Origin: Trypanosoma brucei
Lineage: Eukaryota
Length of the DNA: 64,000 nucleotides
Direction of reading: 5' to 3'
Assembly: GCA_000002445.1 (NCBI GenBank)
Contig: CM000207.1
Span: forward strand, 1,728,001 to 1,792,000
A program made the translations under genes and the position numbers. Positions 35,261 through 38,935 of the stretch are shown in pieces. The notes under the pieces are model-generated. The model was not told the origin of the DNA, made no database searches, and saw only the letters and a list, made by a program, of their open reading frames with translations. The first letter of the stretch is position 1. Each line of letters opens with the position of its first letter.

Positions 35261-38200
35261 ATGCGGCCGCCGACGTTACGTGCATTCACTTCACCACATG
35301 TAATTCGTCATCGCATCACAACTCTCGCTGTGTCAGGTACCAAACTCAACCAACGCTTATCGCTTCTTCTAGGAGTAGGTTTACCCGAGTGCACTGCAAC
35401 TGAGGGCCTGGCGAGTTCGCTTCGGTTCGTATCACAGGAATGCCTCCCTCCTTATTTGGCCTTTACATTCTTAAGTCACTGTTGGTCCATGTGGTCTGCC
35501 TCATCGTCATTTGCCGTGGCTGCCCGCAAAACGGTTGGAGGAACAAATGATTCAGTCGCGTTGGAGACATTACTCAATGTTTCGGAGGAGTGTCTTCTGG
35601 CTTATAGTCGTATAGCGGGCGAAGAGAATCGCTCTCAGCGTCAGATAGTTAACGATAGGGGAACTGTGAAAAATGCAACAATGGGAGCGTCAACACCGCT
35701 ACCACACAGTAGAGCGGGTTATCATTATATCGTGGATCACATGTTGCGAATCTGTTCCGGTTATATGGATGCTAGAACGGCCGTTACTCTTCTGCAGTAT
35801 GCTGTTAGAGTTGAGGACTCAGAGGGCGCCGTCTTTAAAGGACTTGTGGAGTTATTGGCTTCTCGAACTAGTGGTGATCCATTGTTGTTTGAGAACTGTC
35901 TGCGTAAAGTTTTGGGTGTTGCCCTCCCGGTGCACGTTTCTCCCATCGTGACGTCTGTGTTGTGTCTGCGCGTTGTGACTTCGAGCGTTCTTAAGCTTTG
36001 CATGCATCATGTGGCCACTGTGGTTCGGGGTCGCCAGAGCGGACGTCTCGCTGTCGAAAATGCCCTTGGGGGGCTTCATCGATGTGCTGTGATGGCGCTT
36101 CACTGGCTTTTGAAAAATCCCTGCGGTGATCAATGGTGTAATGAGTTGTGCATACAGGTAATGTCGTGCCTAAAGTATGCCCCCATGTTTTTATTGTGTG
36201 ATGTGTACGGTACAATGGCGGATCGTGGGTTGGTGACGCCCTCAGTCCAGTGTAAGTTTCTAGCCAATTGTGGAGTTGCATTGGGTTCTAGTGGTTCCGT
36301 GCCGGATCACTGTGGTGAGGTAATAATTCGCGCATTCACTGAACTCACAAAGAGTGACCGCGAAACCAGGTATATTGAAGAGGGTCTTGTGCATGGCAGT
36401 GCTGCTCTTGTTGCACTAGGCAAGGGAGGACTTGTTCGGCGTGCGTACGTTATGTTTCCAACGCTTCGTGTAACACATCATTTGGTGATGGCCCACGTGC
36501 ACCACGCAGATGTTGTCCGTGCCTGTGATTCGCTTCTCAGCGTTGCATGCTCGCGTGAGGAGGGTTGGATAAATATTCCACCTCCTGTGATGCACGCCAT
36601 ACACGCTGTTTGCGTACTGGTTGGTCGGTCAGGTAGTTCCGCCGACGTGGTACCTCTTTACCGCGCAATCGTGTGTTTTCATAACCCCGGCATCATCGTT
36701 AGCCAGTGTATGGAATATGTTCTATCTGGTTTGTGTGACCGTGTTGCGCGTATTAACGGGCATTTCTCAAAGGAAACGCAGCCATGCACGATACTAGAAC
36801 ATATTGTACCTTTGTTACGCGCAATTGTGCGTTGCATTGGTGATGACATCAATACCGACATGATACTTGAGCTACTCGAAACAGCGCTGAGCGTAGAGTA
36901 CTTTTCTGTTCCATTGACTGCATCCATCGTATGGACATTTCAGCGGTCGACAAGTCTTGCGTTAAAAGATCTCTTTTCTCGCGTAGACCCGTCAACGAAC
37001 GGTGTTCCCTTTTTAAATTACTATGCCCTCTGCCACGCCCGTGATCGGGGAATGCTGGAAACTGTTGAGCATCTCGCAACCGTCTGGCACTGCGATGTGG
37101 AACCCATCCTAAAGCGTTATACTTTCCTGCTGCCATCATACAAGTTATGGAAGTGTGCTGCTTGTGGTCGCTTTAACAGTGACAGGTTTAATTACTGCTT
37201 GTGCTCTGCGCTCCGGAATGGGTTTGTTGTGTGTAGCAAATGCGCTTATGCACAGGATGAGCGATTAAGTTTTTGCCAGTCATGTGGCGTCCGTACGGAA
37301 GAGGGTGCGGTTGCGGCTGCCGTCGTCCGCCGTGCGTGGACCTGTGGTGAATGCGGGGCGAACAATCCTGCGCGGCAGGTGAGTTCCTGTTTCCGCTGCA
37401 AGGCAGACTTGGGCCCAGTGGCAAAAGCGTTGAAAGAAATGGGGAATTCCAAAGTGACCTCGTGCTCATGCCCTACTGTGGATAGTTCGGGTGAAGGGAA
37501 AGGATCGTGTAGGTCTATGCACTATTGCCGACATTGCGGATGGATGCGCGAACCCTGGGCGGTTGCTAACAGCACTGTGTGGCGCTGTGAGGGATGCAGC
37601 CAGTTGCGAAGCTCACTCGACCGCACCTGCCCAGAATGCCCCCACGTTGACTTCTTGCCCTTTGCGATGGCGCATAAAAGTAGCGACGTCCGCTCTTGTG
37701 TGGACTGCGGGGCCATGGCGGAAAACCCTTTTGCTGAAAAATGTGCTCTGTGTGCCGGTGCTTTGCGTGTGGGGGCAACGGCGCTGAAGGCCCCAACAAC
37801 ATCGTCAGCGGCGGTTGGAGAGTCGGAATTGATGGTTGAAACGGCCCAGTGGTGTTCGAATTGTGGGGGGATAGTGGTTGAAAAACTGTCTAGTCATTGT
37901 TCAGAATGTGGACATGCGCTTCATTTTGCTGACGTGTTGCATCTTGCCGTGCGGCGCTGCAGTGCATGTGGAGAGGATTTGGGTACGCAGCAAATCGGAG
38001 TTGTATGCGTTCACTGTTTTTCATTTGCTCCCCCTGTTCCACGGGAAGGTTGGAGCACCGCTGTGGTACATGAAACCTTCAGGGTGATCGATCGCGCCAT
38101 GGAACGGAAGTTGGGCTGTGACACGTTAGCGGACTTATTTCACAAAATCTTAGTTTCTTTCCGACAGCACGTTGGACAGGCGACAATTAGCGAAACCCGT

Positions 38201-38935
38201 GTGGCTGTGGCTGTTGCATTAGGGCGGTTACAAGCAGTGTTGATCGCAAGTGTTCCGTATGAGAGGATGGCCCGCCGAGTAATTGCTCTGACGAAGCAAT
38301 TGTTGGAACATGTTGATAACGTATGTGGCGTTTCTTCTTCTCATTTCCATCCTGGACAATGTCCGCATTGCCTTGGAACTCACAGGCCGGAACTTTGCTC
38401 TTTCAACGAGGAAGAATGGGTGTGTGAGGTGTGTGGGGCCGAAAATGAAAATGGGGATGTATGCCGTTATGTGTGTCGTAACTGCCTCTCCCTTCGCGAC
38501 ACGGTCCGTGAGTTGTGTCCGACGGAAGCATGGGAATGCCCCCAGTGCCAAAGGGCAAATGTAGATTTTGAATCATACTGCATTTTTTGTGGGGTTCAGC
38601 GGGCTGTGGTTGAGGATGCTGTTGAGGAAGCAGCCGAAGTGGTTCCTTTCATTCCTGCCAAATGTAGTGAATGCAACCTCGTGCATCTGGAGGCTCGGTG
38701 CCCCTTATGTCATAACACAATACCCGAAACTCTACGGAAGGCTGAGGGTGTGGTGTGTCTCGTGACGAGTCGGTACGCCTTTATTCAACCCGTCGGCACG
38801 GAGCACCCGAATCAACGTGTGTACGTCGGGCAACAGTGGTTGCGAAAGCACAAATGGACAGGAGGGGAAAAGGTCACATTCACGGCACGACTCAACGACC
38901 AAGGTGGTTTTCGTGTGACTTCTGTCCACTCTTAG
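35261..38935 (+). CDS. Large protein with at least seven RanBP2-type zinc fingers in its C-terminal half
   Basis: The track ORF starts at a GTG (35222); the ATG is at 35261, after the polypyrimidine tract 35040-35100. There are repeated W-x-C-x2-C-x3-N-x6-C-x2-C units: WKCAACGRFNSDRFNYCLC, WTCGECGANNPARQVSSCFRC, WRCEGCSQLRSSLDRTCPEC, CVDCGAMAENPFAEKCALC, WCSNCGGIVVEKLSSHCSEC, WVCEVCGAENENGDVCRYVCRNC, WECPQCQRANVDFESYCIFC and CSECNLVHLEARCPLC. Confidence 0.6.
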   Translation: MRPPTLRAFTSPHVIRHRITTLAVSGTKLNQRLSLLLGVGLPECTATEGLASSLRFVSQECLPPYLAFTFLSHCWSMWSASSSFAVAARKTVGGTNDSVALETLLNVSEECLLAYSRIAGEENRSQRQIVNDRGTVKNATMGASTPLPHSRAGYHYIVDHMLRICSGYMDARTAVTLLQYAVRVEDSEGAVFKGLVELLASRTSGDPLLFENCLRKVLGVALPVHVSPIVTSVLCLRVVTSSVLKLCMHHVATVVRGRQSGRLAVENALGGLHRCAVMALHWLLKNPCGDQWCNELCIQVMSCLKYAPMFLLCDVYGTMADRGLVTPSVQCKFLANCGVALGSSGSVPDHCGEVIIRAFTELTKSDRETRYIEEGLVHGSAALVALGKGGLVRRAYVMFPTLRVTHHLVMAHVHHADVVRACDSLLSVACSREEGWINIPPPVMHAIHAVCVLVGRSGSSADVVPLYRAIVCFHNPGIIVSQCMEYVLSGLCDRVARINGHFSKETQPCTILEHIVPLLRAIVRCIGDDINTDMILELLETALSVEYFSVPLTASIVWTFQRSTSLALKDLFSRVDPSTNGVPFLNYYALCHARDRGMLETVEHLATVWHCDVEPILKRYTFLLPSYKLWKCAACGRFNSDRFNYCLCSALRNGFVVCSKCAYAQDERLSFCQSCGVRTEEGAVAAAVVRRAWTCGECGANNPARQVSSCFRCKADLGPVAKALKEMGNSKVTSCSCPTVDSSGEGKGSCRSMHYCRHCGWMREPWAVANSTVWRCEGCSQLRSSLDRTCPECPHVDFLPFAMAHKSSDVRSCVDCGAMAENPFAEKCALCAGALRVGATALKAPTTSSAAVGESELMVETAQWCSNCGGIVVEKLSSHCSECGHALHFADVLHLAVRRCSACGEDLGTQQIGVVCVHCFSFAPPVPREGWSTAVVHETFRVIDRAMERKLGCDTLADLFHKILVSFRQHVGQATISETRVAVAVALGRLQAVLIASVPYERMARRVIALTKQLLEHVDNVCGVSSSHFHPGQCPHCLGTHRPELCSFNEEEWVCEVCGAENENGDVCRYVCRNCLSLRDTVRELCPTEAWECPQCQRANVDFESYCIFCGVQRAVVEDAVEEAAEVVPFIPAKCSECNLVHLEARCPLCHNTIPETLRKAEGVVCLVTSRYAFIQPVGTEHPNQRVYVGQQWLRKHKWTGGEKVTFTARLNDQGGFRVTSVHS

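Follow-up and report, generated by a model that had tools for sequence, protein, structure and literature searches.

The locus described here raises the question of what a large trypanosome protein, labelled in databases as hypothetical or as containing a RanBP2-type domain, is built to bind. The window, a 64-kb stretch of Trypanosoma brucei brucei TREU927 chromosome 9, holds on its plus strand an open reading frame (ORF) at positions 35261-38935, which runs without interruption from a first ATG at 35261 to a stop codon ending at 38935. An earlier reading of this DNA from its letters (hereafter the sequence-only reading) had placed a protein of about 1220 amino acids here, and this is borne out: the product has 1224 amino acids (134 kDa), and its translation matches T. 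brucei TREU927 XP_827424 (EAN77094, UniProt Q38DM6) at 100% identity and 100% coverage, an entry named ‘hypothetical protein, conserved’ by NCBI and ‘RanBP2-type domain-containing protein’ by UniRef. The locus is a real, conserved and uncharacterised trypanosome gene. Its 5′ neighbour encodes an NDUFB7 homolog (Tb927.9.11660, which is Tb09.211.2780 and Q38DM7), and IscU (Tb927.9.11720) lies on the 3′ side; because these flanking identifiers bracket the gene, its TriTrypDB identifier is probably Tb927.9.11670 or Tb927.9.11680, and its old identifier about Tb09.211.2790. Literature searches by the candidate gene identifiers, the old identifier, the UniProt accession and RanBP2 plus trypanosome terms returned no mention of the protein. 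An in-frame GTG at 35222 was dropped as a start codon, since it is irrelevant in a eukaryote and the ATG at 35261 agrees with the deposited protein.

We show that the Q38DM6 protein consists, from one end to the other, of an acid-free basic N terminus, an α-solenoid of ~570 residues, eight zinc ribbons, a four-helix bundle, four further zinc ribbons and a C-terminal oligonucleotide/oligosaccharide-binding (OB) domain that resembles a cold-shock domain (CSD). This architecture may describe a multivalent binder of, or scaffold for, single-stranded nucleic acid, most likely RNA and possibly in the mitochondrion, a reading to which we give about an even chance of being right. This analysis newly contributes a corrected count of the fingers, a CSD-like domain, a model of the solenoid, a layout in two zinc arrays and the family's restriction to kinetoplastid-like organisms; the finger observation is not new, because the databases already label the protein by it.

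The family was delimited with a HMMER profile run against 1.84 billion cluster representatives; this gave 42 relatives, 41 of them below 1e-10, a wider family than that from word-index homolog searches with the protein or with a seven-sequence profile, which reached Trypanosoma only. The named relatives come from trypanosomatids (Porcisia, Lotmaria, several Leishmania species and Novymonas) and carry the labels ‘hypothetical’ or ‘RanBP2-type domain-containing’, while the remaining ones are Sequence Read Archive (SRA) or metagenome proteins. Most full-length members have the same order of five segments and 19-27 CxxC motifs. Judged from these sequences, the family appears to be limited to trypanosomatids and more distant kinetoplastid-like organisms.

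Cysteine modules and the RanBP2-type pattern

The clustering of cysteines in the C-terminal half is far above chance. Residues 626-1160 contain 21 CxxC knuckles, compared with 4.9 ± 2.0 expected from 5000 composition-preserving shuffles (maximum 13), and the first 625 residues contain none. Together with two C-x-C pairs (646/648 and 735/737), the 21 knuckles make up about 12 Cys4 (or Cys3His) modules, whose paired knuckles lie 8-13 residues apart. Nearly all module cysteines are invariant in six Trypanosoma orthologs, and also in homologs down to 29% identity. Thus, the array of cysteine modules described by the sequence-only reading stands as an array, and what has to be corrected is its description as a set of RanBP2-type fingers.

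The pattern matches to RanBP2-type fingers are not chance, and they are fewer than had been supposed. The strict RanBP2 signature (PROSITE PS01358) fits one of the 12 modules, module 10 at residues 1091-1110, and is present in none of 20000 shuffles; a relaxed form (x6-9, C-x1-2-C) fits four modules, starting at 630, 693, 1053 and 1091, and two of the 20000 shuffles. When only W-x-C-x2-C...C-x(1,2)-C is asked for, a fifth module (start 774) joins these four, and the remaining six or seven lack both Trp and Asn. The claims of at least seven RanBP2-type fingers, and of eight W-x-C modules with several perfect copies, were therefore overstated: exactly one module is perfect, five have W-x-C, and none reaches the Pfam threshold. 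The tally is one canonical finger, three or four degenerate RanBP2-like ones and, for the rest, generic zinc ribbons.

Within this small set the diagnostic residues are well kept. The Trp is invariant in all five W-type modules (W630, W693, W774, W1053 and W1091), and the Asn is invariant in modules 3 and 9 (N702 and N1064) and at least 90% conserved in modules 1 and 10 (N639 and N1100). Modules 1, 9 and 10 are related to each other (BLASTP E 0.001-0.03, with 0.001 for module 1 against module 10), and module 1 also gives a weak phmmer match to the RanBP2-type finger of Mdm4 (E 0.2). Most full-length homologs have the strict match of module 10 at the equivalent C-terminal site, and in the homologs P0029 and P0040 a strict match (starts 475 and 460, respectively) heads the series of relaxed matches, the place held by module 1 in T. 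brucei.

Profile searches give a less favourable picture. The gathering cut-offs are 27 bits for the Pfam RanBP2-finger model PF00641 and 27.3 bits for the double zinc-ribbon model DZR (PF12773). PF00641 found no match on the whole 1224-residue protein; on isolated modules it scored 18.8 bits (E 9.4e-4) at residues 693-713 and 7.1 bits at residues 1050-1063, both sub-threshold, and it had no match to the exact-pattern module 10 scanned in isolation. On the C-terminal halves of homologs it matched weakly in five of 11 (best E 0.001), and DZR matched in six of the 11; in seven further homologs, PF00641 reported P0040 alone (17.5 bits) and missed P0046 in spite of its five exact-pattern modules. 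The best DZR stretch, residues 865-919, scored 30.3 bits with the C-terminal half alone, 19.3 with the whole protein and 23.0 as an isolated segment, and generic zinc-ribbon models in general (Zn_ribbon_3, Zn_ribbon_NUD, Zn_ribbon_TFIIB and DZR) score the modules as well as or better than PF00641. The protein is not a PF00641 member by the curated profile. The sequence-only reading had itself proposed a PF00641 scan, and had named modules unscored by the profile, or Cys spacing that fits another Zn-ribbon family, as evidence that would speak against it; this is largely what was found.

Why, then, keep the RanBP2 comparison at all? A family profile of module 3 run against all PDB chains retrieved the fingers of RBM10, Nup153, RNF31, RanBP2, RBM5, Mdm2/4 and Vps36 at E 0.08-8, mixed with rubredoxins and ribosomal zinc ribbons, and aligned with the RanBP2/NZF fingers from end to end with a one-residue gap. 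The module 10 profile retrieved Nup153 only at E 3.9; its top match, a spurious one to the CxxCH of cytochrome c, was discarded as RanBP2 evidence. In addition, the distant homolog P0046 (1409 residues) has five strict RanBP2 matches, compared with one in the trypanosomatid proteins, and P0040 and P0044 are also more canonical. Because distant homologs hold more canonical copies, we take the W-type modules to be degenerate RanBP2-type fingers and the remaining modules to be plain zinc ribbons; the same comparison of sequences suggests that RanBP2 fingers degenerated progressively in trypanosomatids.

If some modules are RanBP2-type fingers, the protein might be a multivalent adaptor that binds ubiquitin or RanGDP, at the nuclear pore or in ubiquitin signalling, as the sequence-only reading had offered as an alternative. 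The exact PROSITE pattern in one module and the weak retrieval of the Nup153, RanBP2 and RNF31 NZF fingers by the module 3 profile are consistent with such a role. However, ubiquitin-binding NZF fingers carry T-F...φ, and the Ran-binding fingers of Nup153 and RanBP2 carry L-V, in both cases directly after the first cysteine knuckle, and by inspection the W-type modules have GRF, GAN, SQL, GAE and QRA there; since these residues match neither signature, ubiquitin or Ran binding is unlikely. The presequence-like N termini and the C-terminal CSD, which indicates nucleic acid (both described below), also argue against it, the protein is not named in the trypanosome nuclear-pore papers found and matches no nuclear-pore chain in the PDB, and the candidate identifiers do not occur in a nuclear proteome supplement, from which control identifiers are likewise absent. 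We therefore find no support for ubiquitin, RanGDP or nuclear-pore roles, and consider an adaptor of this kind highly improbable.

The OB domain, the helical regions and the N terminus

Three features had escaped the sequence-only reading: a CSD-like OB domain, a four-helix bundle that divides the cysteine modules into two arrays, and a presequence-like N terminus. OB-fold proteins that bind nucleic acids make up almost all of the top 50 Foldseek matches for the C-terminal domain (eIF1A, IF1, Rho, Csl4, Rrp4 and UNR among them; E 0.007-0.06), and the five-stranded β-barrel of the predicted model superimposes on solved CSDs. A profile of 16 homolog tails, run against the PDB, returned 38 sequences at E <10, all of them cold-shock-domain proteins or Rho, with E-values of 1e-3 to 3e-2 for PDB CSDs (1.3e-3 for UNR and 9.8e-3 for CspA). 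Alignment of this profile with CspA places RYAFIQP on the ribonucleoprotein motif 1 (RNP1) sequence GFGFITP and RVYV on the RNP2 sequence DVFV, with the RNP2 His not kept; therefore, Y1172, F1174 and Y1188 match the nucleic-acid-contacting CspA residues F18, F20 and F31. The RNP aromatic positions are Y, F or H across the 16 tails. Fold and motif thus agree on a predicted CSD-like OB fold, while the curated threshold was not reached.

The helical regions were modelled by AlphaFold2 in two halves. The N-terminal half (15 sequences) is all α, with a predicted local distance difference test (pLDDT) score of 83.5 and a predicted template modelling score of 0.75, in keeping with the helical appearance that the sequence-only reading had noted for this part. 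The C-terminal half (11 sequences) has a pLDDT of 68.5 overall and is mostly good (~60-94 by block) from about residue 860 on, where the model comprises the four-helix bundle (residues ~933-1021), array II and the terminal five-stranded barrel. The bundle helices span residues 334-349, 354-371, 374-398 and 403-422 of this model, with block pLDDT 77-94, and R1005, R1006 and L1010 (R406, R407 and L411 of the half model) are invariant in distant homologs. Array II has block pLDDT 80-89 at model residues 431-520, dropping to 60-74 at 521-560, and is the segment conserved most widely among the 42 family representatives.

These helical and ribbon parts invite another explanation, in which the protein is a protein-protein scaffold or assembly factor: ribbons and solenoid would be structural or docking elements, of the kind seen in many ribosomal and polymerase subunits with zinc ribbons, no RNA sequence would be read, and the role of the OB domain would be protein binding or non-specific. 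Consistent with this are the generic ribbon models that equal or outscore PF00641 (up to the 30.3 bits of DZR), the acidity of array II, the absence of the aromatic that stacks on RNA in RNA-binding RanBP2 fingers, and the solenoid itself, which is as similar to the repeats of importin as to those of VPS35 and of mitoribosome assembly factors and is not assignable to a class (HEAT, ARM or PPR-like). Yet the C-terminal domain is basic and keeps the three RNP aromatic positions, and its structural neighbours are nucleic-acid-binding OB folds. Moreover, when the full-length protein was searched against every PDB chain with phmmer, a marginal Mdm4 finger was the sole match, and therefore the protein is, by sequence, in no solved complex, including the trypanosome nuclear-pore and mitoribosome entries. 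A pure scaffold is, in our judgement, unlikely.

Where the protein resides is a separate question. Residues 1-40 have an isoelectric point (pI) of 12, with six K/R and no D/E, and the first acidic residue is at position 43. Despite differing sequences, the first 25 residues of 17 of the 23 full-length homologs likewise have no D/E and two to seven K/R. This composition is like that of IscU, a matrix protein whose gene also lies in the window, and unlike that of the glycosomal, cytosolic and nuclear neighbours. On this basis the N terminus seems to resemble a mitochondrial presequence, and the balance tips slightly towards a mitochondrial location. In the text of the hyperLOPIT supplement, neighbouring identifiers appear in marker lists and in the ortholog table only, and the candidate identifiers were not found. 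TrypTag text had neither the candidate identifiers nor a control identifier.

A presequence-like N terminus and a CSD would also suit a kinetoplast factor that binds single-stranded DNA (ssDNA) in kinetoplast DNA replication or maintenance, like the zinc-knuckle protein UMSBP. CSDs bind ssDNA as well as single-stranded RNA (ssRNA), YB-1 and CspA are among the matches of the tail profile, and the family is limited to kinetoplastid-like organisms. Furthermore, zinc-finger proteins including UMSBP were co-purified with MRB6070 (PMC3384329). Against an ssDNA role stand the lack of specific similarity to DNA-replication proteins in Pfam and in phmmer against the PDB, and a kinetoplast or mitochondrial location that is itself putative. 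RanBP2-type fingers are also not known to bind DNA. Taken together, these points make a kinetoplast ssDNA-binding factor quite unlikely.

A proposed mechanism and the evidence against it

If the Q38DM6 protein is indeed a multivalent binder of single-stranded RNA, its segments may divide the work as follows. The CSD would contact bases through the retained RNP1/RNP2 aromatics Y1172, F1174 and Y1188. Array I, which is mildly basic (pI 8.0) and holds the degenerate RanBP2-like fingers 1, 3 and 5, would add contacts to short motifs along that strand. Docking of partner proteins would more probably fall to the solenoid, to the helical bundle (pI 9.3) and to array II, which is acidic (pI 4.6). The N terminus may direct import into the mitochondrion, where proteins with RanBP2-type fingers or a CSD, such as MRB6070 and RBP16, act on guide RNAs and pre-edited mRNAs. 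A more specific version, which we regard as speculative, is that of a kinetoplastid-specific mitochondrial RNA factor whose degenerate fingers and CSD would read long single-stranded guide RNA or pre-edited mRNA (e.g. U-tails or purine-rich tracts) while its solenoid recruits the editing, stability or ribosome-assembly machinery. Of the multivalent ubiquitin- or RNA-binding scaffold proposed by the sequence-only reading, the RNA part is thus the best reading, strengthened by the CSD/OB domain and the MRB6070 precedent, and the ubiquitin part is unsupported.

Several observations weigh against RNA binding in the mitochondrion. Across the whole protein, ten isolated segments and 18 homologs (11 as C-terminal halves), Pfam reported no RNA-binding or RanBP2 model at threshold; in particular, its CSD model PF00313 was not reported for the Q38DM6 protein, and Rho_RNA_bind matched the C-terminal domain at a sub-threshold 18.1 bits (cut-off 27), with a weak match in three of 11 homologs. 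Zinc binding by the modules is deduced from the spacing and conservation of their cysteines, and array I is modelled with low confidence (low to moderate, with residues 130-258 of the C-half model mostly below pLDDT 50-55 and forming short β-hairpins). In ZRANB2-type RNA-binding fingers, the aromatic of N-F/W-x-R-R stacks on bases (guanines); by inspection, the position after the Asn in modules 1, 3, 9 and 10 is S, P, E and V, respectively, and not a stacking aromatic. In addition, the pI of array II is untypical for RNA-binding fingers, and this acidity and the absent aromatic count against any model in which every finger reads RNA. The location is the weakest step: Tb927.9.11670 and Tb927.9.11680 are both missing from the ATOM40 importome tables and from the curated mitoproteome table, though both sources list Tb927.9.11660 and Tb927.9.11720, and because the candidate identifiers are absent from both, it is the composition of the N terminus that carries the mitochondrial assignment. 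Finally, no experiments bearing on the protein were found in the literature searched.

The question nevertheless matters. Kinetoplastid gene expression, and especially mitochondrial RNA editing, depends on many lineage-specific RNA-binding proteins, and many conserved ‘hypothetical’ proteins are unplaced. The combination of a solenoid, about 12 zinc ribbons and a CSD was not found in any described protein in this analysis. If the protein binds organellar RNA, it would add a design to the architectures of organelle RNA-binding proteins and, being parasite-specific, might merit thought as a drug target; if it is a mitochondrial RNA factor, it would represent a new architectural class beside the PPR, HPR and OZ proteins. 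The present gain is an improvement of annotation at the domain level, not a functional discovery.

Feature coordinates, neighbouring genes and related systems

Table 1. Features of the Q38DM6 gene and protein, with positions in the 64-kb window.
Feature	Residues	Window position	Strand	Evidence
Complete coding sequence with stop		35261..38935	+	ORF list, translation, full identity to XP_827424
Basic, acid-free N terminus, MRPPTLRAFTSPHVIRHRITTL..., possibly a presequence	1-40	35261..35380	+	Composition
Predicted α-solenoid, ~28 helices in helix-turn-helix repeats, period ~35-40 residues	~50-625	35408..37135	+	AlphaFold2 model
Putative zinc array I, pI 8.0, ~8 Cys4 modules	626-925	37136..38035	+	CxxC map, Cys invariance, DZR match
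Array I cysteine sets, first four	632/635+646/648, 658/661+672/675, 695/698+710/713, 735/737+756/759 (last a putative ligand set)			
Array I cysteine sets, last four	776/779+790/793, 813/816+828/831, 865/868+880/883, 900/903+916/919			
Module 1, WKCAACGRFNSDRFNYCLC, RanBP2-like, C-x-C end instead of C-x2-C	630-648	37148..37204	+	Relaxed pattern match
Module 3, WTCGECGANNPARQVSSCFRC, RanBP2-like, one-residue insertion (N-x7-C)	693-713	37337..37399	+	Best PF00641 match among modules
Module 5, WRCEGCSQLRSSLDRTCPEC, W-x-C-x2-C-x10-C-x2-C spacing, without Asn	774-793	37580..37639	+	
Predicted four-helix bundle between the zinc arrays, pI 9.3	~926-1030	38036..38350	+	AlphaFold2 C-half model
Putative zinc array II, acidic, pI 4.6, four modules	1031-1155	38351..38725	+	CxxC map, Cys invariance
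Array II cysteine sets	1034/1037+H1041/1046 (putative ligand set), 1055/1058+1072/1075, 1093/1096+1107/1110, 1135/1138+1147/1150			
Module 9, WVCEVCGAENENGDVCRYVCRNC, RanBP2-like, longer second loop (N-x9-C)	1053-1075	38417..38485	+	Relaxed pattern match
Module 10, WECPQCQRANVDFESYCIFC, sole exact W-x-C-x(2,4)-C-x3-N-x6-C-x2-C match	1091-1110	38531..38590	+	Pattern scan
Predicted cold-shock-like OB domain, pI 10.0, RNP1-like RYAFIQP, RNP2-like RVYVG	~1156-1224	38726..38932	+	

The coordinates of the gene and its segments are given in Table 1. The next gene on the 3′ side (39296-41278, plus strand) encodes 660 residues: a ‘kinetoplastid PH-like domain’ (PF25401, 92.7 bits) at the N terminus, and then a long Ser/Pro-rich tail that appears disordered. 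Other plus-strand neighbours, at 33741-34421, 43613-44155, 46228-46779, 47181-48131 and 48498-50738, encode NDUFB7 (complex I), IscU, a cyclophilin, a class I methyltransferase and an XPG/Rad2-family nuclease, respectively. The nearby annotated genes are all on the plus strand, as in a trypanosome polycistronic unit, and are therefore uninformative on function. A 206-residue TTG-initiated ORF at 49508-50128 on the minus strand, antisense within the XPG-family gene, is almost certainly spurious.

Further upstream, the PEX11-family genes GIM5A and GIM5B (Tb927.9.11580 and Tb927.9.11600; ORFs 25704-26435 and 29094-29819) lie in a tandem duplication (25551-26459 and 28941-29843) with a period of ~3390 bp, in which identity is 100% over the 5′ 300 nt and 96% over the 3′ 240 nt, the central part of the unit being divergent. 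A 246-residue ORF at 31079-31819 (plus strand) has no Pfam match and is a distant full-length GIM5A paralog (23% identity over 237 residues, E 3e-5), and therefore three PEX11-family genes are clustered at this locus; its position suggests that it is Tb927.9.11640, a listed glycosomal marker. GC skew is positive in nearly all 2-kb windows of the 64 kb. The intergenic stretches 30001-34000 and 44001-46000 have a GC content of 0.39-0.41, compared with 0.46-0.52 in coding parts, and a strongly negative AT skew, and are probably pyrimidine-rich regions of trans-splicing and polyadenylation.

Among known systems, the closest precedent in the same organism is MRB6070 (Tb927.2.6070), a protein with five or six predicted RanBP2-type fingers that are argued to bind RNA; its association with MRB1/RESC, an editing-accessory complex of the mitochondrion, depends on RNA (PMC3384329). 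Both it and the Q38DM6 protein are kinetoplastid proteins with a multi-finger, multivalent design. However, MRB6070 is much smaller and is not among the 42 profile relatives, and no report of the Q38DM6 protein in MRB1 purifications was found in searchable text. To our knowledge, MRB6070 has no α-solenoid or CSD.

At the level of single modules, the comparison is with the fingers of ZRANB2, RBM5, RBM10, FUS and EWS, with which modules 1, 3, 9 and 10 share W-x-C-x2-C-x3-N...C-x(1,2)-C. Over its whole length, module 3 can be aligned with the fingers of RBM10 and Nup153, and modules 1 and 3 retain N-x-x-R. In contrast to ZRANB2-type fingers, the Q38DM6 modules have other loop lengths (x7, x9 and C-x-C) and lack the aromatic after the Asn, seven of the 12 are without W and N, and none is at the Pfam threshold.

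A CSD is paired with zinc modules or repeats in Lin28 (CSD plus CCHC knuckles), UNR/CSDE1 and YB-1, and the mitochondrial T. brucei protein RBP16 combines a CSD with RGG. The CSD of the Q38DM6 protein differs from these in being single and C-terminal, with the RNP2 His replaced, and its zinc modules are twelve Cys4 ribbons, not the CCHC knuckles of Lin28. The plant editing and splicing factors OZ1/OZ2 are organelle-targeted proteins whose RNA role depends on two to four canonical RanBP2-type fingers, and they have no solenoid or CSD. If the Q38DM6 protein is mitochondrial, the concept would be analogous, in another lineage and likened by description only. Csl4 (S1/OB plus zinc ribbon) and the N-terminal RNA-binding domain of Rho share with its C terminus a local fold likeness only (E 0.007-0.06, 10-24% identity), and no other domain. 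Curated thresholds do not place the Q38DM6 protein in PF00641 or PF00313. By analogy, it would work most like the multi-module ssRNA binders: MRB6070, the fingers of ZRANB2, RBM5 and RBM10, Lin28, UNR and the plant OZ proteins.

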